Origin: Lachnospiraceae bacterium
Lineage (GTDB): Bacteria; Bacillota; Clostridia; Lachnospirales; Lachnospiraceae
Direction of reading: 5' to 3'
Assembly: GCA_045546735.1 (NCBI GenBank)
Contig: JAZQDJ010000120.1
Location: 42,394-106,393 of the forward strand
Length of the DNA: 64,000 nucleotides
The stretch's first letter is position 1, and each line of letters starts with the position of its first letter. Both the position numbers and the translations under genes were made by a program. The notes under the pieces were generated by a model. The model had not been told where the DNA came from. It searched no databases and worked only from the letters and a program-made list of their open reading frames with translations. Positions 5,815 through 58,297 of this stretch are shown in pieces.

Positions 5815-6756
5815 ATGAAAGAAACTAAGAAAAACAAAAAGCAACAAAAAGTGCGTCGTGACCATAAGAGTTCCATCTTTGCCATGATATTTGGGGACAA
5901 GAAAGAAGCTTTGGCGCTTTACAATGCAATCAGTGGGAAAGAATATAAAAATCCTGATGATTTAAAAATTACAACATTGGAGAATGCACTTTATCTTGAC
6001 ATGAAAAATGACGTCTCTTTTTTGGTGGATACCAGTTTGTGGCTTGTAGAGCATCAGTCCACGGTAAATCCGAATATGCCCTTGCGTGATTTGTTTTATG
6101 TAGCAAGGCAGTATGAAAAACTGTATGGTGATGAGAATATTTATTTACCTACGCCGAAAAGAGTGATTCCGCCGTTTTTTGTAACACTTTATAACGGGAT
6201 AGCAAAACAGCCGGAGCGTAAGGTCATGCGTTTGTCCGAACTATATATACATATGGCGGAAACGGATGAGCCAAATTTAGAGTTAAAAGTACTTCAGTTA
6301 AATATTAATCCGGGATATAATGAGCGGTTGAAGGAAAAGTGTAAAACGCTGGGAGAGTACACGGAGTATGTGGAAAAGGTGCGCCGGTATGAAAAGACAT
6401 ATCCGCTCACGGAGGCAGCAGAGTTAGCAATTGATGAATGTATACAAGAGGGTGTTTTAGCGGAATTTTTTCGCAAGCAGAGAAAGGAGGCACTTAGAAT
6501 GATATTATTTGAGTATGATAAGAAAAAGTATGAGAAGGCACTGCGCGAGTATATAAGAGAAGAGGAAAGAGCGGGAGGTATAGCAGAAGGAAGAGCGGAA
6601 GGTATAGCAGAAGGAAGAGCAGAAAATCAGGCAAAAGTTTTTTTGAATATGCTTGCTGAAGGAATATCTATCGAGCAGGCACAAAGAATAGCAGAAGTAG
6701 ATGATGAAACTAAGGAAAAATTGTTGAAAGGTAACAAAAAAGCAGCTCAAGATTGA
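5815..6756 (+). CDS. Rpn/YhgA-like PD-(D/E)XK nuclease family protein (recombination-promoting nuclease / putative transposase)
   Basis: 313 aa. The pattern D-x-SFLVD...LVEHQS...NMPLRDLFYVARQYE...VTLYNG matches the PD-(D/E)XK core layout of Rpn-type proteins. The C-terminal helical tail has AEGRAEG repeats. Confidence 0.6.
   Translation: MKETKKNKKQQKVRRDHKSSIFAMIFGDKKEALALYNAISGKEYKNPDDLKITTLENALYLDMKNDVSFLVDTSLWLVEHQSTVNPNMPLRDLFYVARQYEKLYGDENIYLPTPKRVIPPFFVTLYNGIAKQPERKVMRLSELYIHMAETDEPNLELKVLQLNINPGYNERLKEKCKTLGEYTEYVEKVRRYEKTYPLTEAAELAIDECIQEGVLAEFFRKQRKEALRMILFEYDKKKYEKALREYIREEERAGGIAEGRAEGIAEGRAENQAKVFLNMLAEGISIEQAQRIAEVDDETKEKLLKGNKKAAQD
6577..6624 (+). repeat. tandem 24-nt duplication inside the Rpn-like gene
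   Basis: GGTATAGCAGAAGGAAGAGCGGAA is followed by GGTATAGCAGAAGGAAGAGCAGAA (23/24 identical), encoding GIAEGRAE twice. Confidence 0.9.
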
Positions 6757-10142: not shown

Positions 10143-10392
10143 ATTTTGTCACCCCATTCTTACCCTTAAAATTATAGAAGATAATGGGAAGACTGTCAAT
10201 GAAAGTCGCATGAAAACAGCGTAAAAAAGCGTCAATTATCTGACATTACTTTATCACATTGTAGTAATAGAATCTACCAATTTAGAGTTGCTAAAAAACG
10301 CTCTTTCGCAACTTACATTTTTCCTGCAAATTTTATTGAGAAAAGAAAGAAAAGTCTTTATACTGATTTTATACAGAAAGAGAGGGTTTCTT

Positions 10393-11322
10393 ATGGATGT
10401 TATTTGCGCAGGTGAAATGCTCATAGACTTTACGCCGGGGGATAAGCCCGATACTTATACAGCCAATCCGGGAGGAGCTCCGGCCAATGTGGCGGTCAGT
10501 ATGGCAAGAAATGGTTTAAAAACGGCATTTCTCGGTATTTTGGGGAATGATGATTTCGGAAAGAAATTAAAGAATGTATTAGAAAAAGAAGGTATTGAAA
10601 TGCTTTGTCCCAATCTTACGGATGAGGCGGTTACGACACTTGCATTTGTTACTTTATATGAGGGGGGAGAGAGGTCTTTTACGTTCGCAAGAAAGCCGGG
10701 TGCAGATATTTTGTTGCGTAAAAGCGATATTGAGGAAGATAAAATTACCCGCACCCGTCTGTTGCATGCCGGAAGTGTATCTTTATCGGACAATCCATGC
10801 AGGGAAGCCATAGGATATGCTATGGAGTTGGCGCATAAAAAAGGAAAGCTTGTCAGCTTTGATATCAATTACCGTGATATGATCTGGCATGACATGGAGA
10901 GATGTAAAAAAGAAGTTGAAAAAATAATGCCTTATGTGGATTTTCTTAAAATTTCCGATGAAGAACTTTATTTTGTCGGAGGAGAAGAAAATATCGCATC
11001 GTTTATGGAAAAAAACAGTATCTCAGTTGTTGTGGAAACACTTGGAAGTAAAGGTGCAAAGTATTTTTTTAAAGGAAAAGAGGGCAGAGTAGACGCAAGA
11101 TCGGTGGATGCTGTGGATGCGACGGGTGCAGGTGATGCGTTTTGGGGAGCATTTCTTTCTGCAATACTTATGTGCAATGTAAATAAAACCGATGATATTA
11201 CGGAAGAAATTGTGAGAAAGGCACTTGTGTACGGAAACATTTCCGGTGCTCTTTGCGTGCAAATGCCGGGGGGGATTCCGGCGCTTCCTACGAAAGAAGA
11301 GATTGAGGAGGTACTTCTATGA
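10393..11322 (+). CDS. PfkB-family carbohydrate kinase (fructokinase-like)
   Basis: Start is placed at the ATG of MDVICAGEMLIDF, preceded by AGAGAGGG. The TTG at 10288 gives an implausible hydrophobic leader. Contains the GAGDAF motif. Confidence 0.85.
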   Translation: MDVICAGEMLIDFTPGDKPDTYTANPGGAPANVAVSMARNGLKTAFLGILGNDDFGKKLKNVLEKEGIEMLCPNLTDEAVTTLAFVTLYEGGERSFTFARKPGADILLRKSDIEEDKITRTRLLHAGSVSLSDNPCREAIGYAMELAHKKGKLVSFDINYRDMIWHDMERCKKEVEKIMPYVDFLKISDEELYFVGGEENIASFMEKNSISVVVETLGSKGAKYFFKGKEGRVDARSVDAVDATGAGDAFWGAFLSAILMCNVNKTDDITEEIVRKALVYGNISGALCVQMPGGIPALPTKEEIEEVLL

Positions 11323-24098: not shown

Positions 24099-24195
24099 AA
24101 AATAATGCCGAATAAATACTTTGAAATTCAAACTAGACGAAATACAGTTTTACGTATACAATAGAGAAAGAAAGATTTTTATGAGAGGTACTTTT

Positions 24196-25065
24196 ATGAG
24201 AGATTTTGTGATTTCAACAGAAACTAATTCAGACATGTCACAGGAATTTTTAAAGTCCAATGACATTCTTGTAATTCCGCATTATTACAATATTGAAGAG
24301 GATATGTACGGTGACGGAAATGAACTTACAGTTGTAGAATTCTACAATGAAATGCGTGCAGGCAAAAAGGCCGGAACTGCAGCAAGCAATCCGGCGGTTA
24401 TCGAAGAGAAGTTTACAGAGGTGGCAAAAGCCGGAAAAGATATTCTTCACATCAGCTTTTCTTCCCAGCTTTCCTGTGGATGCCAGAACATCATTAACGG
24501 CGGAAATGCAATGAAAGATGATTATCCGGATTTTAATATTGAAGTTGTAGATACATTATCCGGAACGCTCGGTGAGGGATTGATTCTTCAGATGGCGGTT
24601 GAACTCAAAAAAGAAGGAAAAACGATGGCAGAAACAGCGAAGGCGCTTCGCGAACTGGCTCCGCATGTGAATACTATTCTTACGGTAGATGATTTGGATA
24701 CTCTTTACAGAGGCGGGCGTCTTTCTAAGACTTCTGCAGTGGTAGGCGGAGTTATCGGAATTAAACCTATTATTGCAATTAATGCAGAAGGTAAGCTTGC
24801 AGCAACCGGAAAGGCAAGAGGACGTAAAAAAGCATTCAACATGTTGCTTGAGATAATGGAAAACAATATGGGTTCTTATAAAGATAAGCAGGTATTTGTC
24901 GGAATTGCACACGGCGACGCCGAGGAAGATGCACTTGTTCTTAAAAAGATGATAGAGGACAAATTCGGTTTTGATAAATTTGTTATTGAACCGATCGGAC
25001 CGAGTATCGGAGCCCACACAGGCCCGGGTGCTATCGGACTTGTATTCCTCGGGGATGTAAGATAG
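24196..25065 (+). CDS. DegV family fatty-acid-binding protein
   Basis: Start is placed at MRDFVISTETNSD, after GAGAGG. The DegV core motifs are LSGTLGEG and TLYRGGRLSK. Confidence 0.85.
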   Translation: MRDFVISTETNSDMSQEFLKSNDILVIPHYYNIEEDMYGDGNELTVVEFYNEMRAGKKAGTAASNPAVIEEKFTEVAKAGKDILHISFSSQLSCGCQNIINGGNAMKDDYPDFNIEVVDTLSGTLGEGLILQMAVELKKEGKTMAETAKALRELAPHVNTILTVDDLDTLYRGGRLSKTSAVVGGVIGIKPIIAINAEGKLAATGKARGRKKAFNMLLEIMENNMGSYKDKQVFVGIAHGDAEEDALVLKKMIEDKFGFDKFVIEPIGPSIGAHTGPGAIGLVFLGDVR

Positions 25066-26999: not shown

Positions 27000-27030
27000 A
27001 AGTGTGGTGTGTTAGAGCACAAATACAATT

Positions 27031-27120
27031 TATCTCTCTGGAGAGTCTCTGCTAACCGGCAGAGCGCCGAAGGTGTAAGACGGAAAATCCGTCGATCTCT
27101 CAGGCAAAAGGACAGAGCCT
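27031..27120 (+). promoter_or_regulatory. glycine riboswitch, single aptamer
   Basis: The conserved aptamer blocks CTCTGGAGAG...GCGCCGAAGGTGTAA...TCTCTCAGGCAAAAGGACAGAG are present. It lies 50 nt upstream of a sodium:alanine/glycine symporter gene. Confidence 0.85.
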
Positions 27121-27170
27121 ATCAGCATGTTCTATATTCTTTAGAGATACCAGCGAAAGGAGATAGGAAC

Positions 27171-28621: not shown

Positions 28622-28650
28622 CGGTGGCAATACTACAGTTGCCATGTTGT

Positions 28651-28836
28651 GGGCAAGTTTCGCTATTTTCCACAGTATCAGGCCCACTGTGTAGCGAGAA
28701 ATTTTAGAAATGTCTTTGTTTTTTGTCGCATTTTGGGCAAGAAATTTTTTAAAAATGTAATTTCTTACCCAATCATTCTTTTAATTTTTCGATAGCAATG
28801 GGCAAGAAGTGAAAGAAAATCAGCAAATATTACCTA
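28651..28836 (+). repeat. array A of the GGGYAAG-N22-23-CCCA repeat family (3 units)
   Basis: A1 28651-28686 is GGGCAAGTTTCGCTATTTTCCACAGTATCAGGCCCA. A2 28735-28771 is GGGCAAGAAATTTTTTAAAAATGTAATTTCTTACCCA. A3 28800-28836 is GGGCAAGAAGTGAAAGAAAATCAGCAAATATTACCTA. Confidence 0.75.
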
Positions 28837-28874: not shown

Positions 28875-28922
28875 TAAAAAAATGGGGCATTTGCATGAAT
28901 GAATCACACAAAATGCCCCATT
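28875..28922 (-). terminator. intrinsic terminator of the minus-strand membrane-protein gene
   Basis: Perfect 12-bp stem AATGGGGCATTT/AAATGCCCCATT. The A-run on the + strand gives a T-run on the - strand. Confidence 0.75.
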
Positions 28923-28934
28923 GAAATCAAGTTT

Positions 28935-29249
28935 TTATACTCCGCCGGTAATATTGACATGAATGATGATTAGCAAGAACAGAAAAGCGATCGAAACAAT
29001 CGGTGCAATGCAATTAAAAACGATTGCAGGAATTATTTTGTCCTTGATTGAAACAATAATGGAAATCAACCATAAAATCGGATGTATCGGAACAAGATAT
29101 AGCAGCAAAGGAAGTCCTGACAACTGAGTCGGATAGAAAGCAACCGATCCGGTTCCGTATAAAAACCAGACAAATGCTGCCAATACGAGTAATACCCATC
29201 TTATAATACAATCCCATTTATATATTTTATACATTACCATATTTATCAC
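28935..29249 (-). CDS. hypothetical integral membrane protein
   Basis: 104-aa ORF with 3-4 predicted TM helices. It is the last gene of the sigma/anti-sigma operon direction. Confidence 0.55.
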   Translation of the reverse strand: MINMVMYKIYKWDCIIRWVLLVLAAFVWFLYGTGSVAFYPTQLSGLPLLLYLVPIHPILWLISIIVSIKDKIIPAIVFNCIAPIVSIAFLFLLIIIHVNITGGV

Positions 29250-38084: not shown

Positions 38085-38190
38085 AACTACCTCCATAAAT
38101 ACAACATGGCTATTATATGTATATGCGAAGATGCTGTTAATAGGGGTGCGATAGGGCTCATTTTTTTCGAAAAAACTTAGGGGTGCACCC

Positions 38191-38215
38191 TTGACAATAT
38201 ATATATATATATAAT
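38191..38215 (+). promoter_or_regulatory. promoter-like TTGACA-(AT)n-TATAAT with only a 13-nt spacer
   Basis: TTGACA at 38191-38196 and TATAAT at 38210-38215. The spacer consists entirely of AT dinucleotides. Confidence 0.4.
38197..38212. repeat. (AT)8 dinucleotide microsatellite
   Basis: Counted directly from the sequence. Confidence 0.95.
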
Positions 38216-38276
38216 AGATACTGAATTTTTGTAACTTTTAAACAAAAAATACAGTATAGAAAAGGGAGAGAAGAGT

Positions 38277-38993
38277 ATGAAACATTTGAAGAAAATTTTA
38301 GTTGCATGTATGGCCCTTCTGATTTTTGCAGGTGTGATGCAGACGGAAGTGAAGGCGGAGCAGTATTATAACTTTGATGATGCGCCGATTGTAAAGATAT
38401 GGGATTTGAAGACGGCTCCTAAAAAAGGGGATGGTGTTTGATCAAGCCTCTGTAATTATGAAGGGGATAAAGTAGAAGTTGTCAAAGTTACACAAAGTAA
38501 GAAGATTCTTAAAAACTTAAAACCTTATAATAGATATGATGCGGAAACAAAAGAAGGTCATGCAGGAATTTCGTATTTGCCGAAAAAGGCTGGAACTACT
38601 ACATTGAGTATTACAGTAAAATGCAATGGAAAAAAGAAAGTACATAAGGTAAAATTAAAGGTAGTACAATATAAAAATCCGTTTAAGACATTAAAAATCG
38701 GTAATAAAAATTACGAGAAAAAATTAGTAAATAAGAAGATTTTTTATATTTCAAAGCCTAAAAAGAATAAAAACGTAAAACTTTCATTTAAAATGAAGAA
38801 AGGATATGAGATATCCACAATATATTATCACTATATTAAAAAAGATGGATCTAGTGGTTTGGAAATTTTAAAAAACGGACAGAGATTCAAGCTCCGAAAG
38901 AATAGTGTGTTTATACAAATCAGTTACAGAAAAAAAGTAGACGGATATGATATAGGTCGCATAATTGATACAGTGTTTATTAATTTTAAATAA
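38277..38993 (+). pseudogene. secreted Ig-like (Big_2-like) domain protein gene interrupted by one in-frame TGA at 38439-38441
   Basis: GGGAGAG RBS and signal peptide MKHLKKILVACMALLIFAGVMQTEVKA. The same frame continues through the TGA into the 38577 ORF (…KKGDGV*SSLCNYEGDKVEVVKV…KKAGTTTLSITVKCNG…). Confidence 0.6.
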
Positions 38994-39620: not shown

Positions 39621-39690
39621 AGGGGAGTGGTTTTGGGAGTAAGCTGGAGAGATTGAGAATAGCCTTGGAATAAGTCTTGGAAGTGTGCGC

Positions 39691-39876
39691 GGGCAAGATT
39701 AGCTGAAAAGCTATGAAAAGGGCCCAATTTGAAATGTGAGTGAAAGAATAGATTGGACAATAAAAATTAAAAAACAGGAGCAACTTGCCCAAAATAAGAC
39801 AAAGAAATGACAAAAAAGGAGTTATGTTAACCTGTGCATGGGCAAGAGTATTCGAAAAATGGAGATTTTTTACCCA
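39691..39876 (+). repeat. array B of the GGGYAAG-N22-23-CCCA repeat family (3 units)
   Basis: B1 39691-39726 is GGGCAAGATTAGCTGAAAAGCTATGAAAAGGGCCCA. B2 39755-39791 is GGACAATAAAAATTAAAAAACAGGAGCAACTTGCCCA. B3 39840-39876 is GGGCAAGAGTATTCGAAAAATGGAGATTTTTTACCCA. Confidence 0.75.
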
Positions 39877-39960: not shown

Positions 39961-40866
39961 TTATTTTATAGCCGGACTATAATCAACAAAATAATCTGCA
40001 AATTCTCCGTCATCCGCATCAAAGAAACAGATGCCGACAATGCCTCGTCCTGTGTGAGCTCCGATAGCGCAGCCTACGGTCGAGATAAAATATTCTTTCG
40101 GTGAAACCTGCTCATCAAGATATTTCTGAACAAGAGAAAGAGACTCTAAGTCTTCCCCGTGACATACGGCAATTGTTTGTGAAGATGGCTTATAAGCATT
40201 CTCTTTTACATATTCCACAAGTGTTTTGAAGGCTTTTTTGCTACCGCGTACTTTCTGCAGAACAGAAAGTTTTCCTTCTTTATCTACAATCAGAATCGGT
40301 TTAATATCCAGTGTTTCACCGATAGTTCCGGAAACTTTGGAAAGACGTCCGCCCTTGATAAGATAGTTGAGTGTACGTACAGTAAACACATGATGAATAT
40401 GTGAAATATAGTATTCTGCTGCCTTAAGGATCGTTTCTTTGTCAGCACCTTTTTCCAGCATATGCACAAGTTTGGAAACGACAAGTCCGAATCCGATGGA
40501 TGCACACTTGGAATCAACAATTGTCAGATCAAAATCAGGATAGTCCTCAAGAACATTGGATTTTGCAATGTTTGCAGCATTAAATGTTCCGGCAATTCCT
40601 GTGGAAAAGCATAAGTAAATGACGGTGTCTCCCGCCTCCGCATATGGACGGAATGCATTTTCGAACATTTCCGGATTAATATGATAGGTACGGATTTCGC
40701 GTTTCATATCGTCAAGGATGTCGTAAAATTCTCCTGTTTGAATCGTGTCTCCGTCAAAATAGTCTACGTCATCAATCACAACCGGTGTCGGGATTACATG
40801 AAGTCCATGTTTCTCAACATAACTTTTCGGAAGATCGGTGGCAGAGTCGGTAATAATTTTCAGCAT
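39961..40866 (-). CDS. DegV family fatty-acid-binding protein
   Basis: MLKIITDSATDLP is a typical DegV start. LIKGGRLSK is also present. Confidence 0.85.
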   Translation of the reverse strand: MLKIITDSATDLPKSYVEKHGLHVIPTPVVIDDVDYFDGDTIQTGEFYDILDDMKREIRTYHINPEMFENAFRPYAEAGDTVIYLCFSTGIAGTFNAANIAKSNVLEDYPDFDLTIVDSKCASIGFGLVVSKLVHMLEKGADKETILKAAEYYISHIHHVFTVRTLNYLIKGGRLSKVSGTIGETLDIKPILIVDKEGKLSVLQKVRGSKKAFKTLVEYVKENAYKPSSQTIAVCHGEDLESLSLVQKYLDEQVSPKEYFISTVGCAIGAHTGRGIVGICFFDADDGEFADYFVDYSPAIK

Positions 40867-43734: not shown

Positions 43735-43987
43735 TAGAGAAAGACGATGACGAAGACAGTAAGTTATCTGCCAAAGGCAAAGCGAGCCGGAGACGGTGAA
43801 AGTCCGGTGCGAGTAACAGATAGCCCAATATCACTTCTGAGTTGCAGGCTGAAACATTTTGGAGTAGGTTCTGACGGTATTCGCCCCGTTACAGCGGACA
43901 CATATAAAACACATTACGTGGGAGTATGCAGTAACAGGTGGTTCACGAAGCGGTAGCTCGTCCTTTTACGGACGGGTTTTTTTATTT
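43735..43987 (+). promoter_or_regulatory. T-box leader (Ile specifier) with terminator
   Basis: Stem I has the GA/K-turn (GATGACGAAGACAGTA) and a distal-loop GGTGAAAG. The candidate specifier is ATC followed by A and CTTCTGAG. A T-box-like GGTGGTTCACG is present. The terminator CTCGTCC/GGACGGG plus T8 lies at 43957-43987. Confidence 0.8.
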
Positions 43988-44043
43988 TATAAACGCAGGT
44001 GTCTGTCCCGGAGTCTGCACTCAAAGAAACAGGAGGTAGAAAC

Positions 44044-47000
44044 ATGTACGAAAAAGTATCCACGAATCTGAATTTCGTAGAGAGAGAAAAAGAAACAGAA
44101 AAATTCTGGCGTGAAAATGACATTTTCCAAAAGAGTATGAAAGCAAGAGAAGGTTGCCCGACATACACATTTTATGACGGACCGCCGACTGCGAACGGAA
44201 AACCGCATATCGGTCACGTTTTGACACGTGTTATCAAAGATATGATTCCGAGATACAGAACAATGAAAGGTTACATGGTTCCGCGTAAAGCCGGATGGGA
44301 TACCCATGGCTTACCGGTTGAACTTGAGGTAGAAAAACTCGTCGGTATCGACGGAAAAGAGCAGATCGAAGCATACGGTCTTGATCCGTTTATCACAAAA
44401 TGTAAAGAAAGTGTTTGGAAATACAAAGGAATGTGGGAGGACTTCTCTCAGACAGTTGGTTTCTGGGCAGATATGGATGATCCGTATGTAACTTACGATG
44501 ATAATTTCATTGAGTCTGAGTGGTGGGCACTCAAAGAAATCTGGGACAAAGGATTGCTTTACAAAGGATTTAAAATCGTGCCTTATTGTCCGCGTTGCGG
44601 AACTCCGCTTTCTTCTCACGAGGTAGCACAGGGTTACAAGGCAGTAAAAGAGCGTTCCGCAGTGGTTCGTTTCAAAGTTGTCGGCGAAGATGCATATTTC
44701 CTCGCTTGGACAACAACACCTTGGACACTTCCGTCTAACGTGGCACTTTGTGTGAACCCGGATGAAACATATGTAAAAGTAAAAGCTGCAGATAACTATA
44801 CTTACTACATGGCAGAGGCACTTCTTGATAAGGTGCTCGGAAAACTTGCCGAGGAAGGCGAAAAGGCTTATGAAGTACTTGAAACATACAAAGGTACAGA
44901 CCTTGAGCGTAAAGAGTACGAGCCGCTTTTCAAGTGTGCAGGTGATGCAGCAGAAAAACAGGGCAAAAAAGGTCACTATGTGACATGCGATAATTACGTA
45001 ACAATGACAGACGGTACAGGTATCGTTCATATCGCTCCGGCGTTCGGTGAAGACGATGCCCAGGTCGGAAGAAAATACGACCTTCCGTTCGTTCAGTTCG
45101 TAAACGGAAAAGGTGAGATGACTGAGGAAACAGACTATGCAGGCATGTTTGTAAAAGATGCGGATAAACCAATCCTCATTGATCTTGAAAAAGAAGGAAA
45201 ACTTTTTGATGCTCCGAAATTTGAGCATGATTATCCGTTCTGCTGGAGATGTGATACTCCGCTTATCTATTATGCACGTGAGTCTTGGTTTATCAAGATG
45301 ACAGCAGTGCGTGATGACCTTGTACGCAACAATAAGACAGTAAACTGGATTCCGGAATCTATCGGGGAAGGACGTTTCGGAAACTGGCTTGAAAATATTC
45401 AGGACTGGGGTATTTCCCGTGACCGTTACTGGGGAACACCGCTTAATATCTGGCATTGTCAGGACTGCGGACATATGGAATCTATCGGCAGCCGTGAGCA
45501 GCTTGCACAGATGAGCGGCAATGATGCAGCTCTTACCGTAGAACTTCACAGACCGTACATTGATGAGATTACAATCACTTGTCCGGATTGCGGAAAAACG
45601 ATGAAACGTGTTCCGGAAGTTATCGACTGCAGGTTTGACTCAGGAGCGATGCCTTTCGCACAGCACCACTATCCTTTTGAGAACAAAGACTTGTTCGAGC
45701 AGCAGTTCCCGGCACAGTTTATCTCAGAGGCGGTTGACCAGACACGTGGATGGTTCTACTCACTTATGGCAGAGTCTACCCTTCTGTTTAACAAAGCTCC
45801 TTACGAGAACGTTATCGTTTTAGGTCACGTGCAGGATGAAAACGGACAGAAGATGAGTAAGTCCAAAGGTAATGCCGATGATCCGTTTGATGCACTTGAG
45901 CAGTACGGAGCAGATGCAATCCGTTGGTATTTCTACATCAACTCTGCACCATGGCTTCCGAACCGTTTCCACGGAAAGGCCGTGCAGGAAGGACAGCGTA
46001 AATTCATGGGTACTCTTTGGAACACATATGCGTTCTTCGTACTCTATGCAAATATTGATAACTTTGATGCAAGCAAATATACACTCGATTACGACAAGCT
46101 TCCGGTTATGGATAAGTGGTTGCTTTCTAAGTTAAACACACTTATCACAGAGGTAGATACAAACCTTGATAATTACCGTATTCCGGAGACAGCAAGAGCG
46201 CTTGATGAGTTTGTTGATGAGATGAGTAACTGGTACGTGCGCAGAAGCCGTGAGCGTTTCTGGGCAAAAGGAATGGAGCAGGATAAGATCAATGCATATA
46301 TGACACTTTACACAGCACTTGTGACAGTGGCAAAATGTGCAGCTCCGATGATTCCGTTCATGGCAGAAGATATTTACAGAAATCTTGTGTGCACAAACGA
46401 TGCATCTGCACCTGAAAGTGTACATTTATGTGACTTCCCGGTTGCAAATCCGGCTTATGTAGATAAACAGCTTGAGGAAGATATGGAAGCGGTTCTCAAG
46501 ATTGTTGTTATGGGTCGTGCCTGCAGAAATACAGCAAATATCAAGAACCGTCAGCCGATCGGAACAATGTTTGTAAAAGCTGAGAAAGCACTTTCTGAGT
46601 TCTATCAGGAGATTATCGAGGATGAACTGAATGTGAAGACAGTGAAGTTTACAGACGATGTCAGAGATTTCACAACTTACACATTTAAACCACAGCTTAA
46701 GACAGTCGGACCGAAATACGGAAAACAGCTCGGCGGTATTAAAAATTATCTTGCCGGTGTAGACGGAAATGAAGCTATGGATACATTGAATGCAGGTAAT
46801 GCGCTTGTATTCGATGTGGACGGTGTTTCCGTAGAGCTTTCTAAGGATGATCTCCTTATCGAGATGAGCCAGAAGGAAGGTTACATGTCTGAGGCAGACA
46901 ACACAGTAACAGTTGTACTTGATACAAACTTGTCAGAAGAGCTCATTGAGGAAGGTTTTGTATACGAAATCATCAGCAAGGTGCAGACAATGCGTAAAGA

Positions 47001-47199
47001 TTCCGGTTTTGAAGTGATGGATCACATCAAAGTAGGTATCAGCGGTAACGAAAAGGTTGCAGGAATTGCACTTGCAAATAAAGATATGATTTGCGGTAAA
47101 GTACTTGCAGATGAGCTTGCGGCAGAAGTAGTCTTTGCTAACAGTAAAGAGTGGAATGTCAACGGCGAAAAAGTTACTGTTTCTGTAGAGAAAATGTAA
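44044..47199 (+). CDS. ileS: isoleucine--tRNA ligase (type 2)
   Basis: Start is placed at MYEKVSTNLNF, after AGGAGG. Motifs are HIGH (PHIGHVLT) and KMSKS (KMSKSKGN). 1051 aa. Confidence 0.95.
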   Translation: MYEKVSTNLNFVEREKETEKFWRENDIFQKSMKAREGCPTYTFYDGPPTANGKPHIGHVLTRVIKDMIPRYRTMKGYMVPRKAGWDTHGLPVELEVEKLVGIDGKEQIEAYGLDPFITKCKESVWKYKGMWEDFSQTVGFWADMDDPYVTYDDNFIESEWWALKEIWDKGLLYKGFKIVPYCPRCGTPLSSHEVAQGYKAVKERSAVVRFKVVGEDAYFLAWTTTPWTLPSNVALCVNPDETYVKVKAADNYTYYMAEALLDKVLGKLAEEGEKAYEVLETYKGTDLERKEYEPLFKCAGDAAEKQGKKGHYVTCDNYVTMTDGTGIVHIAPAFGEDDAQVGRKYDLPFVQFVNGKGEMTEETDYAGMFVKDADKPILIDLEKEGKLFDAPKFEHDYPFCWRCDTPLIYYARESWFIKMTAVRDDLVRNNKTVNWIPESIGEGRFGNWLENIQDWGISRDRYWGTPLNIWHCQDCGHMESIGSREQLAQMSGNDAALTVELHRPYIDEITITCPDCGKTMKRVPEVIDCRFDSGAMPFAQHHYPFENKDLFEQQFPAQFISEAVDQTRGWFYSLMAESTLLFNKAPYENVIVLGHVQDENGQKMSKSKGNADDPFDALEQYGADAIRWYFYINSAPWLPNRFHGKAVQEGQRKFMGTLWNTYAFFVLYANIDNFDASKYTLDYDKLPVMDKWLLSKLNTLITEVDTNLDNYRIPETARALDEFVDEMSNWYVRRSRERFWAKGMEQDKINAYMTLYTALVTVAKCAAPMIPFMAEDIYRNLVCTNDASAPESVHLCDFPVANPAYVDKQLEEDMEAVLKIVVMGRACRNTANIKNRQPIGTMFVKAEKALSEFYQEIIEDELNVKTVKFTDDVRDFTTYTFKPQLKTVGPKYGKQLGGIKNYLAGVDGNEAMDTLNAGNALVFDVDGVSVELSKDDLLIEMSQKEGYMSEADNTVTVVLDTNLSEELIEEGFVYEIISKVQTMRKDSGFEVMDHIKVGISGNEKVAGIALANKDMICGKVLADELAAEVVFANSKEWNVNGEKVTVSVEKM

Positions 47200-52312: not shown

Positions 52313-53200
52313 TTAATCTACTCTTTCATCTCCCCAGAAGAACAGAACTACAGTTCCCGGACCGGTATGACTTCCGATAACGGTACCGATATTGTTAATC
52401 TGTACTTTGCCGTTCATTTTCGGGAAAGCAGCTTCTACAATGTCTGCAAGAGCTTTTGCGTCGTCGTAGCAGGCAGCGTGTGCAATATAGCATTTTTCGC
52501 TGTAATTTTCTCTGTCCTGTGCAAGTTCTTTCATCTTGTCGGCAACAGCCTGAAGAACTTTTTTCTTTGTGCGGACCTTCATACGAGGAATCAGTTTTCC
52601 TTCCACATTTAAATTAATAACCGGACAAATACTGAGCATATTGCCTACAAATCCTGAAGTTTTGGAAACACGTCCGCCTCTTACAAGATATTTTAAATCA
52701 GTTGCAAATATCCATGTATGCATTTTCAGTTTATTGTCTTCTGCCCATTTGGCAAGGGTATCGATATCCATGCCCTCATCACGCAGGTCAGCAAGCTTGT
52801 CCATAAAAAGTCCGTAACCGGAACATGCATTAAATGAATCAAGAACAATGATTTTGCGATCCGGATACTTTTCTGCAAGCACATTACGTGCAACACAAGC
52901 AGAGTTGTAAACACCGGAAATACCGGAAGCAAGCGAAAGATGAAGGATATCTTTGCCATCTTCTAAAAACGGAGTGAAATATTCGATAAACTCATCAACA
53001 TTGACCTGTGATGTCTTTGTGTCAGCACCGTTTTCCATCGCTTTGTAGAAATCATCAAACGAAATGCTCTTTCCGAGATCGTCCGGATATACTTTGTCAT
53101 CTAATTGAAAATGAAAGCAGACATAGTGAATGTCTCTAGCATCAAACTGCTCCTGCGTTAAGTCTGCGGTGGAGCAGCAGCTTAAAATGTAGTTACTCAT
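52313..53200 (-). CDS. DegV family protein (MSNYILSCCSTADL subfamily), tandem copy 2
   Basis: 295 aa with LVRGGRVSKTSGFVGNMLSICP. It is colinear with the next gene. Confidence 0.85.
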   Translation of the reverse strand: MSNYILSCCSTADLTQEQFDARDIHYVCFHFQLDDKVYPDDLGKSISFDDFYKAMENGADTKTSQVNVDEFIEYFTPFLEDGKDILHLSLASGISGVYNSACVARNVLAEKYPDRKIIVLDSFNACSGYGLFMDKLADLRDEGMDIDTLAKWAEDNKLKMHTWIFATDLKYLVRGGRVSKTSGFVGNMLSICPVINLNVEGKLIPRMKVRTKKKVLQAVADKMKELAQDRENYSEKCYIAHAACYDDAKALADIVEAAFPKMNGKVQINNIGTVIGSHTGPGTVVLFFWGDERVD

Positions 53201-53242: not shown

Positions 53243-54130
53243 TTAGTTGACTCTTTTATCTCCCCAGAAAAAGAGTGCTACGGTGCCCGGACCGGTATGG
53301 CTTCCGATTACGGTACCGATGGAATAAATTTCAACTTTTCCGTCAAGATTAGGAAAAGTTTCTTCGATAATGTCTGCTACAGCTTTTGCATCTTCATAGC
53401 AGGCAGAATGGGAAATATAACATTTTCCGTTATAGTCTGTGCCGTTTTGGGCATGTTCAATCATCTTGTCTGCAATGGCACGGATGACTTTTTTCTTTGT
53501 CCGGATTTTGTAACGTGGAATTAGCTTTCCTTCAAAGGAAACATTTAAAAGCGGACAAATGCTGAGCATATTTCCGACAAAGCCGGAGGTTTTGGAAACA
53601 CGGCCGCCTTTGACAAAGAACGTCAAATCAGAAGAGAAGAACCAGTGATGAAGCTCCAGCAAATGTTCATTTGTCCATGCTGCAAGAGAATCAATGTCCA
53701 TTCCTTCGTCGCGTAAATCTGCAAGCTTATCCATAAGAAGGCCGTAGCCGGAAGCAGCAGCTAACGAATCGATGATATAAATTTTACGCTCCGGATATTT
53801 TTCGGAGAGTTCTTCGCCGGCAAGACGGGCAGAGTTGTATACACCTGAAATACCGGAAGAAAGCGTGAGGTGCAAAATATCTTTTCCCTCTTTTAAGAAG
53901 CTTTCGAAGTATTCCGTAAATTCTTCTGTGTTTACCTGAGAAGTCTTCGTGTCAGCACCGTCGGTCATAGCCTGATAAAAATCGGAAAAAGAAATGCTTT
54001 TTCCCAGGTCATCCGGATACTGTTTCCCATCTAATTCGAAATGAAAACAAATATAATGGATGTCTCTGCGCTTAAACTGTTCATTTGTAAGGTCTGCTGT
54101 AGAGCAGCAACTTAAAATGTAGTTACTCAT
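53243..54130 (-). CDS. DegV family protein (MSNYILSCCSTADL subfamily), tandem copy 1
   Basis: 295 aa with the same N-terminus and length as the 52313 gene. Confidence 0.85.
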   Translation of the reverse strand: MSNYILSCCSTADLTNEQFKRRDIHYICFHFELDGKQYPDDLGKSISFSDFYQAMTDGADTKTSQVNTEEFTEYFESFLKEGKDILHLTLSSGISGVYNSARLAGEELSEKYPERKIYIIDSLAAASGYGLLMDKLADLRDEGMDIDSLAAWTNEHLLELHHWFFSSDLTFFVKGGRVSKTSGFVGNMLSICPLLNVSFEGKLIPRYKIRTKKKVIRAIADKMIEHAQNGTDYNGKCYISHSACYEDAKAVADIIEETFPNLDGKVEIYSIGTVIGSHTGPGTVALFFWGDKRVN

Positions 54131-54326: not shown

Positions 54327-56630
54327 ATGATTAAGTTATATGACGGCGGTGCATATCTTGTAAACGGAACAGAGCTTATTCCGGACGGAGCGGATGCACT
54401 TGCAGCAGTGAAATCAAAGACCGGAAAAGACGTTTCACAGCAGGAAGCTGCCAAAGAAACGATTGCTTACGGAATTCTGGAAGAGCACAATACTTCCGGA
54501 AATATGGAAAAGTTAAAAATCAAATTCGATAAATTGACTTCCCACGACATTACATTCGTAGGAATTATTCAGACAGCGAGAGCTTCAGGACTTGAGAAGT
54601 TCCCGATTCCTTATGTTCTGACAAACTGCCACAATTCACTTTGTGCAGTCGGCGGAACAATTAACGAAGATGACCATATGTTTGGTCTTACTTGTGCAAA
54701 GAAATACGGCGGTGTTTATGTTCCGCCTCATCAGGCAGTTATCCATCAGTTTGCCCGCGAGATGCTTGCAGGCGGAGGTAAGATGATTCTCGGTTCCGAT
54801 TCACATACACGTTACGGTGCTCTCGGAACTATGGCGATGGGTGAAGGCGGTCCGGAGCTTGTAAAACAGCTTCTTTGCCAGACATATGACATTAATATGC
54901 CGGGCGTTGTCTGTGTGTACCTGAAAGGTGCGCCTGTGATGGGTGTCGGTCCTCAGGACGTGGCACTTGCTATTATCGGTGCAGTATTCGGAAACGGATA
55001 TGTAAAAAATAAAGTAATGGAATTTGTCGGACCGGGTGTGTCTTCTCTTTCTGCGGACTTCCGTATCGGTATCGATGTAATGACAACAGAGACAACTTGT
55101 CTTTCTTCTATTTGGAGAACGGACGATGAAATCAAAGATTTCTATGATGTTCATGGCAGAAGCGAAGAGTACAAAGGACTTAATCCGGGAGAGGTTGCTT
55201 ACTATGACGGCGTAATCGAAATCGATCTTTCCAAGATCCGTCCGATGATTGCAATGCCGTTCCATCCAAGCAATACATACACAATTGAGGAACTCAATGC
55301 AAACCTTACAGATATTCTTCATGATGTAGAAAAACGTGCGGCGGTCAGCCTTGACAACGCAGTACCTTATTCTCTTCAGGATAAAGTTGTGAACGGCAAA
55401 TTCATGGTAGATCAAGGTATCATCGCAGGTTGTGCCGGCGGTGGTTTCGAAAATATCTGTGCAGCGGCAGATATTTTAAAAGGAAAATATATCGGCTCTG
55501 ACGGATTTACACTCAGCGTATATCCGGCTTCTATGCCTGTATATATGGAACTTATTAAAAATGGTTGTGCAGCGACAATCATGGAGACAGGTGCGGTTAT
55601 GAAGACTGCATTTTGCGGACCGTGCTTCGGCGCAGGCGATACTCCGGCAAACAATGCTTTCAGTATCCGTCATTCAACACGTAACTTCCCGAATCGTGAG
55701 GGTTCTAAGCTTCAGAACGGCCAGATTTCTTCCGTTGCTCTTATGGATGCACGTTCCATCGCAGCAACTGCAGCAAACAAAGGCCAGCTTACTGCGGCAA
55801 CAGATTTCGACGGTGAAATCGGAAAATATAAATATCATTACGATGCAAACATTTACGCAAACCGTGTATTTGATTCTAAGGGCGTGGCAGATCCGTCGGT
55901 TGAAATCCAGTTCGGTCCAAACATCAAGGATTGGCCTGCTATGGTTGCACTCACAGATAACCTTGTGCTTAAAGTAGTTTCCGAGATTCACGATCCGGTA
56001 ACAACAACAGATGAGCTTATTCCGTCCGGTGAGACATCTTCTTACCGCTCAAATCCTCTCGGACTTGCTGAGTTTGCTCTTTCCAGAAAAGATCCTCAGT
56101 ACGTTGGCAGAGCAAAAGAAGTTCAGGCGGCAGAAAAAGCAAGAGAAGCTATGGTTGCAGGAGAGGCAACAGAGAAACCTTGTCAGGTTTTACCGGAAAT
56201 CAAACCGGTCATGGACAAGATTAAAGAAAGTTTCCCTGAGCTTACTCATGAATCATTCGGTATCGGTTCTACTATTTTTGCAGTAAAACCGGGTGATGGT
56301 TCCGCACGTGAGCAGGCAGCAAGTTGTCAGAAGGTACTCGGCGGATGGGCAAACATCGCTAACGAGTATGCGACAAAGAGATATCGTTCTAACCTCATCA
56401 ACTGGGGTATGCTTCCGTTCGTTATTCCGGAAGGAGATCTTCCGTTTGAAAATCTGGATTACATCTTTATTCCGGATATCAAGAAGGCAGTGGAAGAAAA
56501 ATGGGATGAAATCAAGGCTTATGTTGTAAAAGACGAGCTTGTAGAGTTCACAATGACACTCGGCGGTCTGACAGATGAAGAGCGTGAGATTATCCTGAAA
56601 GGATGCTTGATTAACTACAATAGAATTTAA
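54327..56630 (+). CDS. aconitase-family hydratase (aconitate hydratase-like)
   Basis: 767 aa. Fe-S ligand motifs are GSDSHT, CGPCFG and [10 protein letters not shown]. The C-terminal swivel domain has [10 protein letters not shown]. Confidence 0.8.
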
Positions 56631-56757
56631 AGAGTGTGAAATTGATTTATGAAGGCTTCTGCCTGCAGATGTAACTGTGGGTGGAAGCTTTTTTATGTGG
56701 TTTGTGGGAAAGATTAGATTTGATTTTAGCTTTGCGGCAGATAGATTTAGTGCGGGT

Positions 56758-57027
56758 GGGCAAAAAATGAAGGATTTTTGTAAAAAGGGCCCAGAAGTGG
56801 CAAGGAGAAGGGGATAGGATTTGAGAAAAATGGGTAAGAAATGAAAGATTATAATAAAAAAGGCCCAGATATGTGAAGGAAAAACGCTGTAGGAAGTTTA
56901 GATGGAGAAATAGGACGGGCAAGAAATGAAAGAAAAAGCAGGAAAGGGCCCAATTTTAGCGGTATTTGTGATGTTTGCCAGAGAGTGAGTGGGTAAGAAA
57001 TGAAGAAAACAAGCTAAAACTTGCCCA
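56758..57027 (+). repeat. array C of the GGGYAAG-N22-23-CCCA repeat family (4 clear units, plus degenerate flanking units at 56706 and 57044)
   Basis: C1 56758-56793 is GGGCAAAAAATGAAGGATTTTTGTAAAAAGGGCCCA. C2 56832-56867 is GGGTAAGAAATGAAAGATTATAATAAAAAAGGCCCA. C3 56917-56952 is GGGCAAGAAATGAAAGAAAAAGCAGGAAAGGGCCCA. C4 56991-57027 is GGGTAAGAAATGAAGAAAACAAGCTAAAACTTGCCCA. Confidence 0.8.
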
Positions 57028-57134
57028 TGGTTAGGAAGAAAGAGGGCAGAACTAAACAAATTTCAACTTCTGCCGATATACATAGTGCAAGTGATGAACG
57101 GTCGACATCGCCTGTAGCCAAGGAAGGTGTGTGT

Positions 57135-57166
57135 GAGCGCAAGGGAGCGCAAGCGCATCTTTTTTT
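57135..57166 (+). terminator. terminator-like hairpin plus T7, 30 nt upstream of the next start codon
   Basis: GAGCGC-12 nt-GCGC(A)TC followed by TTTTTTT. The stem is short and has one bulge. Confidence 0.4.
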
Positions 57167-57196
57167 GTTGGCTAACATTCCAGAAGGAGGGATTAT

Positions 57197-58297
57197 TTGA
57201 AGATTGATTCCAGCTACATAGGAATGGAATCCGCCAGAAGATACTCTTCTGTGACCAAAAAGACCGCCACAGCCAGCCTGGTAGGCGTGGAGGTATTGCA
57301 AGGACAGCAGCCGGCAAGTGAAAACTTTTCACAGCTACTGAATACCGGGGAGTGGGATGAAAGCGGCAATTTCCTGCTCGACGAAAACAGCCGTGTGATT
57401 GCTTCAAGGGCAACATACAAAACAAGTTCTTCCATCAGTTCCATCGGTGAGAAGAAGACCTTACAATCTATTCGTGAGATGTGTGTACATTACCTGATCC
57501 GTTGGCTCTATACGAACCTCGGAGCAAGAAGAGGAGAAACCGAAAACCAAGTTGATGAGTATATGAATAAATACCTCGGAAATAATAATGTGCAAAGCAT
57601 CGGAAATACGGGAGGAACTTACAATTTCGGTCAAATGAAAATGAATATGAGTTACTTCCATGAAGAGGCGGAACAGACGCAGTTTAGTACGGTCGGAACT
57701 GTAAAAACCGCAGACGGACGGGAAATCAATTTTAATCTCGGATTGTCGATGAGCCGCCGCTTTACAGAGTATGCACAGACGACTTCGGTCGGGGAGTTTG
57801 TGCAGATGACAGATCCGCTTGTTATCAATTTAGACACCAATATGACAACGTTATCTGACCAAAAGTTTGAGTTTGACCTTGACTGTGACGGTGTGAAAGA
57901 TACTATTTCACAGTTAAGCGGAAGAAACGGATTTTTGGCTCTCGATAAAAACGGAGACGGTGTGATTAATGATGGCTCGGAATTGTTCGGGACAAAGAGC
58001 GGAGACGGTTTTGCAGATCTTGCGCAGTACGACGAAGACGGAAACGGATGGATTGACGAGAATGATGCAATATTTGAAAAACTTCTTGTGTGGGCAAAAG
58101 ATGAGAACGGAAAAGATGAGCTTTACACATTGAAGGAAGCAGGTGTCGGAGCGATGTGCCTGCAAAGGGCAGAAACTGATTTTTCTTTGAATTCGTTAAA
58201 AGACAATCAGACAAACGGCCGCATCCGTTCAACGGGAATTTTCCTGTATGAAAACGGAAATGTCGGAACCATGCAACAATTGGATTTGGCGCAATAA
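57197..58297 (+). CDS. hypothetical protein with EF-hand-like calcium-binding loops
   Basis: TTG start 8 nt after AAGGAGGG. The loops are DLDCDGVKD, DKNGDGVINDGSE and DEDGNGWIDEND. No signal peptide is evident. Confidence 0.6.
   Translation: MKIDSSYIGMESARRYSSVTKKTATASLVGVEVLQGQQPASENFSQLLNTGEWDESGNFLLDENSRVIASRATYKTSSSISSIGEKKTLQSIREMCVHYLIRWLYTNLGARRGETENQVDEYMNKYLGNNNVQSIGNTGGTYNFGQMKMNMSYFHEEAEQTQFSTVGTVKTADGREINFNLGLSMSRRFTEYAQTTSVGEFVQMTDPLVINLDTNMTTLSDQKFEFDLDCDGVKDTISQLSGRNGFLALDKNGDGVINDGSELFGTKSGDGFADLAQYDEDGNGWIDENDAIFEKLLVWAKDENGKDELYTLKEAGVGAMCLQRAETDFSLNSLKDNQTNGRIRSTGIFLYENGNVGTMQQLDLAQ

Follow-up and report, generated by a model that had tools for sequence, protein, structure and literature searches.

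Arrays of inverted-repeat units at whole helical turns in intergenic DNA of a Lachnospiraceae bacterium: a possible BIME-like element

Repeats of the REP (repetitive extragenic palindromic) and BIME (bacterial interspersed mosaic element) type are well studied in Proteobacteria only, and their roles, whether as DNA gyrase sites, in the binding of integration host factor (IHF) or in mRNA stabilisation, are debated. A family from the Bacillota would provide an independent system in which to address the DNA-level role of intergenic arrays. Here we describe a repeat family in a stretch of 64,000 nucleotides from an uncultured Lachnospiraceae bacterium (contig JAZQDJ010000120.1; 'the window' below means this whole stretch), in which ten short units with inverted ends form three intergenic arrays, A, B and C, and in which the distances between units correspond to whole turns of the double helix.

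Several described systems resemble these arrays in one respect or another. The STAR elements of Staphylococcus aureus are likewise intergenic, belong to an AT-rich Bacillota genome and are of unknown function; they contain GC-rich motifs with GGGCCC every ~40 bp, and their copy number varies by strain. Plasmid centromeres and iteron arrays are, like the arrays of the window, tandem inverted-repeat sites placed at whole helical turns for a nucleoprotein complex, and sopC of F, for example, consists of 12 repeats of 43 bp, each with a short inverted repeat. In E. coli the GC content of the gyrase motif oscillates with a period of 10.75 bp, and the BIME-2 elements act as strong sites for gyrase, independently of transcription (PMC6379681). 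More generally, bacteria commonly hold undescribed stem-loop repeat families (PMC2267715). Literature searches on the arm sequences of the units and on Lachnospiraceae intergenic repeats returned nothing relevant.

Units, arrays and their spacing

The units are 37-38 nt long and of the general form TGGGYAAG...(GGG/CTTR)CCCA, starting with (T/C)GGGYAAG and ending with (A/G)GGCCCA or YTTRCCCA. All ten have the same polarity and all lie in intergenic DNA, as had been proposed in an earlier reading of the window made from the sequence alone (hereafter the sequence-only reading). The coordinates given there for the four units of array C agree with ours, with starts within 1 nt, and the two other arrays to which it referred indeed exist, with three units each, making ten clear units in total. 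Together with an eleventh, 34-nt relative, which also serves as a terminator, the copy count is 10-11 units per 64 kb. The members are as follows.

Array A, 39690-39876
39690-39726, + strand: unit A1, 37 nt, end ...GGGCCCA
39754-39791, + strand: unit A2, 38 nt, TGGACAAT...CTTGCCCA, more degenerate than any other unit; linker from A1, 27 nt
39839-39876, + strand: unit A3, 38 nt, positional equivalent of unit 3 of the sister-species element in L305; linker from A2, 47 nt
Array B, 28650-28836
28650-28686, + strand: unit B1, 37 nt, end ...AGGCCCA
28734-28771, + strand: unit B2, 38 nt, arms of 13-14 bp, TTGGGCAAGAAATT/AATTTCTTACCCAA; linker from B1, 47 nt
28799-28836, + strand: unit B3, 38 nt, end ...TTACCTA; linker from B2, 27 nt
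28884-28919, - strand: related hairpin of sister type, 34 nt, GGGCATTT...AAATGCCC; linker from B3, 47 nt
Array C, 56757-57027
56705-56739, + strand: possible decayed unit C0, TGGGAAAG...TTGCGGCA, 52 bp before C1
56757-56793, + strand: unit C1, 37 nt, TGGGCAAAAAATG...AGGGCCCA
56831-56867, + strand: unit C2, 37 nt; linker from C1, 37 nt
56916-56952, + strand: unit C3, 37 nt; linker from C2, 48 nt
56990-57027, + strand: unit C4, 38 nt, TGGGTAAG...CTTGCCCA, the best palindrome in array C; linker from C3, 37 nt

The family is real and far above chance, as the sequence-only reading had supposed: the pattern GGGYAAR-N24-25-CCCA matches five times against 0.1 expected from Markov simulations, and a 17-mer consensus matches eight times against 1.26 expected. 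When a hidden Markov model (HMM) was built leaving out one array at a time, the left-out units returned at E = 0.05-17, usually as the top non-training matches, and the similarity across arrays is modest. C0, which had been listed as a degenerate unit on the left flank (56706-56739), has the right shape and phase but was not recovered by the HMM, and so stands without statistical support. Pairwise identity in alignments of the units is 60-82%, only the unit ends being conserved, and no homology among arrays A, B and C was found outside the units. The distance from the first G to the last C is nearly constant within a unit type (34, 35-36 or 36-37 nt) and the interiors vary. The + strand of array C is purine-rich and C-poor (70% purine, 8.7% C), again as described earlier; array A is purine-rich as well (65%), but array B is not (50%).

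Arrays A-C have a quantised spacing and a composition periodicity of 10.5-10.75 bp. The linkers measure 27 and 47 nt in array A, 47, 27 and 47 nt in array B (including the hairpin at 28884) and 37, 48 and 37 nt in array C, and the corresponding start-to-start distances are 64 and 85 bp, 84, 65 and 85 bp, and 74, 85 and 74 bp. Since these distances fall at 64-65, 74 and 84-85 bp, successive units are separated by 6, 7 or 8 turns of the helix. For periods of 10.0-10.5 bp the distances give a Rayleigh R of 0.94-0.97, and none of 20,000 random distance sets was as good. Linkers of equal length have no sequence similarity (z -2.1 to 1.9) and, being non-homologous, cannot simply have inherited their lengths, such that it is length that is conserved without sequence. 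As calculated from the coordinates, the GC arms are separated by 32-33 bp in a unit and by 32, 42 or 52-53 bp over the linkers, every gap thus amounting to ~3, 4 or 5 turns. In each of the three arrays the GC and AAA/TTT periodograms have their maximum at 10.5-10.75 bp, and the arrays rank first, third and fourth for 10-11-bp GC periodicity among ~2,550 sliding 250-bp segments of the whole stretch. A BIME-2-like gyrase or DNA-wrapping site would be expected to show a GC period of ~10.5-10.75 bp over ~130 bp or more, and the arrays have this period.

The sequence-only reading had also held that each unit can form a hairpin. The inverted ends on which this view was based are indeed present, but seven of the ten units fold no better than shuffles (z mostly -1 to +1.3). 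The predicted hairpins of the window units are weak, typically with 5-8 bp that close loops of 22-27 nt; over all of these units 5-13 bp pair, in half of them 5 bp only, and the loops span 12-27 nt. For array C as a whole the folding z is -1.2 (+ strand) and -1.9 (- strand). The arm statistics pool the window and related families and refer to 29 units for the composition of the pairs and to 27 for the comparison with shuffles. Pair positions 1-3 are essentially invariant G-C pairs, position 4 is C-G or T-A, and position 6 is A-T in 12 units and T-A in nine; for the pooled families the arm pairing exceeds that in all 5,000 shuffles. Within a genome, the pairing at positions 5-10 is 0.38 against 0.39 for shuffled arms in the window, and 0.59 against 0.53 in the sisters. 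Because covariation of the arms is found between families but not within a genome, the arms behave as family-specific inverted motifs and not as individually kept RNA stems. There are 15 G.T pairs and 10 A.C pairs, so that G.T is not favoured and no strand signature is apparent. RNAalifold, when applied to the three-unit element of the sister species, gave an alternative pairing between units, which is uninformative because all units have the same arms. A U-run is absent after ten of the 11 window units and is present only at 28884-28919, where a T-run following the hairpin on the - strand identifies it as the terminator of the - strand gene 28935-29249.

Gene setting, terminators and relatives

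The host is a member of a gut lineage. Array C occupies a 566-bp gap (56631-57196) with an aconitase-family 'hydratase' gene (54327-56630) upstream and a gene for a 366-aa protein (57197-58297) downstream; array A has spoVT on one side and a convergent degV on the other; and array B comes after a Na:alanine symporter gene, controlled by a glycine riboswitch, and before a convergent small gene. A Pfam scan of ~50 open reading frames (ORFs) of the window, to which all statements on its gene content refer, returned housekeeping, sporulation and chemotaxis genes. Among these ORFs there were no cas domains and no transposase genes, including those for REP-associated tyrosine (RAYT, or Y1) transposases, an association with which the sequence-only reading had put forward for checking.

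Two further features delimit the variable part of the array C gap.

56651-56697, + strand: strong intrinsic terminator for the aconitase-family gene, with a U-run after the hairpin; -25.7 kcal/mol, z -7.3
57053-57079, + strand: promoter of gene 57197-58297, TAAA-N15-GCCGATAT, perfect, at the right edge of the variable region

The terminator directly follows the aconitase-family stop, is conserved in the relative L011 and is not part of the repeat. It precedes array C, which is thus behind a terminator, contrary to the earlier claim that none separates the stop from the array. Array B is likewise downstream of a strong terminator, whereas array A follows the spoVT stop and precedes the first terminator. 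The arrays have no promoter in common that could be found, and they bear no consistent positional relation to terminators or promoters. The promoter at 57053-57079, of the sigma-D/FliA type by the established B. subtilis sigma-D consensus, is kept in L001, L002, L005, L011 and L013; it overlaps the supposed right-hand degenerate unit at 57044-57076, which can no longer be regarded as one. Similarly, the hairpin at 57135-57166, previously described as the first terminator-like one after the array, is present but is enclosed by a larger hairpin (~57119-57166), which belongs to a conserved 5' leader preceding the downstream gene. That leader, which is conserved in the same five relatives, extends for ~90 nt after the promoter and ends in the terminator-like hairpin and a U-run (57119-57166), while the gene itself is annotated in relatives as PF26745 'SPM'. 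The segment 57053-57170 may represent an attenuator, or else a riboswitch not recognised so far, belonging to a gene of the flagellar regulon.

Relatives, found via the flanking genes, belong to other species; within these genes the DNA identity is 86-92.6%, the sister species being at ~92%. In sister species a related three-unit element with the arms GGGTATTG...CAATACCC is present at locus A (L305), locus B (L310) and locus C (L013), the arm type being GGGTATT/AATACCC in the sisters and GGGCAAG/CTTGCCC in the window. These three elements, at three different loci, have a spacing of 61 + 52 bp in common and 72% column identity. At locus C the terminator and the promoter are conserved and the DNA enclosed by them is hypervariable, with three such units in L013, a single GGGTAT...ATACCC hairpin that is a terminator in L002 and L005, and no units in L011, L001 and L006. 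Three GGGTAT-type units of 33-34 nt make up locus A in L305, which in L306 is only a 65-bp gap and in L310 only a remnant; at locus B, three GGGTAT-type units are found in L310 and none in L311. Unit 3 of L310 at locus B is the orthologue of the 28884-28919 hairpin and differs from it by a compensatory C-G to T-A change. The compensatory changes that the sequence-only reading had thought worth seeking in the terminal stems thus exist in this orthologue, but not as arm covariation within the genome. Judged by their U-runs, the terminators among the relatives are L013 unit 1, L310 unit 3 and the L002 and L005 hairpins. Since arrays occur at orthologous loci in species diverged by ~8%, they are old and not recently mobile; by this comparison they are long-standing features of their loci that are frequently lost and whose arm sequence differs by lineage. 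At the array borders, comparison with the empty L011 site revealed no target-site duplications.

A scan of metagenome contigs with a two-unit pattern gave 71 loci, nearly all by chance, the real arrays being L258 and L243. These are Firmicute loci from an unrelated metagenome, with the arms TGGGTAAGAA...TTCTTACCCA, a period of 74-75 bp and conserved linkers; in L258 there are six units, of which the sixth is truncated and the other five are complete, while L243 comprises 2.5 units between divergent chromosomal genes. BLASTN with the L258 array gave no match in plasmid and phage collections. In a genome collection the pattern TGGGYAARAARTGAA-N17-19-CCYA gave at least 119 single matches, those listed being chance matches and none of them having a second unit, and all six loci inspected were coding; viral contigs gave single matches only, and the 25 from the two-unit scan that were inspected were all in coding-like sequence. 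Among the loci set aside, L215 and L263 are a CRISPR array, the 36-nt repeat of which, GTTTGAGAACCTTGTAAATTATGATGGGTAAGAAAC, by chance contains the TGGGTAAGAAAC arm, and L249 is a eukaryote-like tandem repeat. Two observations from these contigs may be recorded separately. L267, an unrelated metagenome contig, contains at 10160-10395 seven 17-bp palindromes TTGCCCA-N3-TGGGCAA with an exact 41-bp period, beside an AT-rich stretch and with a C5 methylase and a DUF6261 protein as neighbours; this looks like an iteron or operator array, and the identity of its arm sequence to that of the window units is probably a coincidence of the search pattern. Adjoining the 2.5-unit array of L243 is a GC-rich, apparently structured leader of ~170 nt (6120-6290, - strand) upstream of an ABC-F ATPase gene, possibly an antibiotic-responsive attenuator.

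Other features of the window may be mentioned for completeness. It encodes four DegV-family paralogues (24121-25065, 39961-40866, 52313-53200 and 53243-54130), one of which directly adjoins array A and two of which are 2.5 kb upstream of array C. The glycine riboswitch (Rfam RF00504, 57.4 bits) is at 27028-27125, upstream of the Na:alanine symporter gene; the true length of the symporter is 468 aa and the 522-aa ORF therefore begins inside the riboswitch. Directly before unit B1 there is an inverted repeat TGGCAAT-N8-GTTGCCA (28623-28649) that resembles shortened unit arms. A T-box leader at 43738-43968, upstream of the 1066-aa ORF 43999-47199, which is isoleucyl-tRNA synthetase by synteny with relatives, scored 63 bits against an Rfam gathering threshold of 93 bits (E = 2e-12) and was missed by the default search. 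Finally, the 480-bp intergenic gap 38097-38576, upstream of a 138-aa ORF without a Pfam match, is without repeat units and had no Rfam match at E <= 0.1.

A phased DNA element and its rivals

How, then, should the arrays be understood? With somewhat less than even confidence, we favour a lineage-specific intergenic repeat family that acts on double-stranded DNA in a BIME-like manner, its phased GC arms and A/T tracts binding or wrapping a protein. Each unit presents two inverted GC-rich arms, TGGGC(AAG) and GCCCA, ~32 bp or three turns apart, separated by an A/T-rich interior that is free in sequence and fixed in length, and linkers of 27, 37 and 47-48 bp place every GC arm on the same helix face and the A/T tracts in phase. 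A protein might then bind cooperatively along one DNA face, or the DNA might wrap around a protein, candidates being DNA gyrase, as at E. coli BIME-2, and a nucleoid-associated or chromosome-organising protein. A DNA site would fit the inverted arms, the fixed unit length, the whole-turn spacing and the inconsistent position relative to terminators and promoters, and the different arms at the same loci in sisters would imply recognition by a co-evolving trans-acting factor. Of the three hypotheses kept alive by the sequence-only reading, phased protein sites and REP/BIME-like units are thus favoured by the 27/37/47-nt linkers and the 10.5-10.75-bp periodicity, while its multi-hairpin regulatory RNA fares badly in view of the weak folding, the position of arrays B and C behind terminators, the location of L243 between divergent genes and the lack of arm covariation within the genome. 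In a bolder and, we think, rather unlikely version the arrays would be the Bacillota equivalent of BIME-2, dedicated docking sites in Lachnospiraceae for a protein that organises the chromosome or manages its topology. The arms would co-evolve with the protein (GGGCAAG here, GGGTATT in the sisters), and the phasing would give rise to a complex of protein and wrapped DNA in gaps that are close to gene ends and transcriptionally silent.

Several points weigh against a phased DNA element. That a protein binds, and which one, we infer from the layout of the sequence. The spacing argument depends on only eight distances in three arrays of one 64-kb window, and, since tandem periods are close to 74 bp, the repetition of the units contributes a harmonic of its own to the periodogram signal. 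The 10-11-bp periodicity is clear in L305 and L243 and moderate in L310, but L013 and L258 show none that is significant; moreover, the sister-type element has periods of 61 + 52 bp and arms ~29 bp apart, and the phasing is accordingly not uniform in the wider family. The purine excess on one strand in arrays A and C is not predicted by a symmetric DNA site, and some units act as RNA hairpins, namely the terminators 28884-28919, L013 unit 1 and L310 unit 3.

A selfish or neutral stem-loop repeat, REP-like or MITE-like (miniature inverted-repeat transposable element), is an unlikely explanation, though one to be taken seriously. It would have no host function, would have spread or duplicated locally in 'dead' intergenic DNA and then decayed, and would owe its spacing to the mechanism of duplication or insertion. 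The absence of arrays from relatives (C from L011, L001 and L006; A from L306 and L310; B from L311), the degeneracy of many units (A2, B3), their restriction to intergenic DNA, mostly after gene ends, and the frequency of undescribed families of this kind (PMC2267715) are all in accord with it. No transposase or RAYT gene is among the ~50 window ORFs scanned, however, neither target-site duplications nor terminal structure were seen, and the arrays are at orthologous loci in species diverged by ~8%. In particular, the arms, unit length and linker classes are kept while the interiors and linkers are randomised, a pattern that points to constraint. Were the arrays selfish or neutral, they would be one more lineage-specific stem-loop repeat family, of limited interest; on the DNA-element reading, array C (~350 bp) would be a concrete bait with which to look for the protein that binds it, in a lineage that is abundant in gut and rumen yet poorly characterised.

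An element acting at the RNA level appears quite improbable to us. The units could in principle be 3' untranslated-region or read-through hairpins that terminate transcription, in a back-up role or in clusters, or that hold off 3' exonucleases, or they could compose a multi-hairpin regulatory RNA. There are indeed real terminators with U-runs in the family (28884-28919 on the - strand, L013 unit 1, the L002 and L005 hairpins and L310 unit 3), array A sits ahead of the first terminator after spoVT, orthologous hairpins carry compensatory changes, purines prevail on the sense strand of arrays A and C, and hairpin clusters have been proposed as termination units (PMC8355165). Yet the window units fold weakly, as does array C on either strand (z -1.2 and -1.9), positions 5-10 pair at 38%, like shuffled arms, and G.T pairs (15 against 10 A.C) leave no strand signature. 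Arrays B and C are behind strong terminators, L243 is between divergent genes, there is neither a consistent promoter nor an Rfam match, and quantisation of the linkers in steps of 10 nt has no obvious RNA rationale. The remaining rival, a degenerate or orphan CRISPR array, is suggested by the alternation of ~37-nt repeats with non-repeated segments and by the 74-75-bp period. It is effectively refuted by repeats that are 60-82% identical and conserved at the ends only, 'spacers' in three length classes (27, 37 and 47-48 nt), the lack of cas genes among the ~50 window ORFs scanned, the division into three separate mini-arrays of 3-4 units each and the fact that the L258 'spacers' are themselves repeated; the sequence-only reading had rightly called the likeness superficial.

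Some narrower candidates were discarded. A sponge of the CsrB/RsmZ type would be rich in GGA, which occurs 11 times in array C against 13.4 +/- 2.6 expected and not at all in array B. Small ORFs starting at an ATG within C1-C4 are contradicted by A1-A3 and B1-B2, which are without ATG, and by the absence of the sequence from relatives. A MITE was dismissed since the array borders show no duplications relative to the empty L011 site and arrays are present at orthologous sister loci, and an intrinsic terminator, as a class, since ten units are without a U-run and the loops are 12-27 nt. A plasmid or phage element was set aside too, as collections of such sequences contain nothing that resembles the related L258 array. 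In agreement with the earlier failure to assign the units to any known element, an Rfam search of the window at gathering thresholds found only the glycine riboswitch, and E-value searches with arrays B and C, L305 and L258 yielded noise only.

Comparison with known systems

The STAR repeats are 14-nt direct repeats, unlike the 37-38-bp units with inverted ends, and have no sequence relationship to them; we know of no report of phasing in STAR elements. Sites of the sopC type are plasmid-borne and confined to a single locus, and their repeats are near-identical, whereas the window has degenerate arrays at several chromosomal loci, the linkers of which are unrelated. With CRISPR arrays they share repeats of ~37 nt and a period of ~65-85 bp, but their repeats are degenerate and their spacers quantised, there is no leader, and they form several mini-arrays at housekeeping loci. 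Clustered terminator hairpins (PMC8355165) are comparable in that several hairpins follow stop codons and some members of the family have U-runs, but in the window ten of the 11 units have none, a canonical terminator of its own precedes each of arrays B and C, and the loops, at 14-27 nt, are far larger than those of terminators.

The closest likeness is to the REP/BIME type, of which membership is nevertheless not claimed, because the units lack the GTAG 5' tetranucleotide, their interiors are unpaired, they are in direct orientation and RAYT was not seen among the window ORFs. Instead of GTAG, a T or C precedes GGG and an A follows CCC, and the units have no sequence similarity to REP; REPs pair over almost their full length, whereas the array units pair over the outer 5-10 bp and leave an interior of 14-27 nt unpaired; and BIME units alternate in orientation, while those of the arrays are all direct. 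The host, too, belongs to the Lachnospiraceae (Bacillota), from which no such family is known. REP/BIME elements number tens to hundreds of copies per genome, and the 64 kb contain 10-11 units. A REP unit is an extragenic imperfect palindrome of 20-40 bp; the window units are extragenic and 37-38 bp long with inverted ends, and 5-13 bp of them pair. What the two have in common are a unit size of ~35-38 bp, an extragenic position that is typically after gene ends or between convergent genes, clustering with linkers of defined length, a species-specific sequence and a presence that varies among relatives. With BIME-2 in particular, the arrays share the GC period of the gyrase motif, 10.75 bp (PMC6379681).

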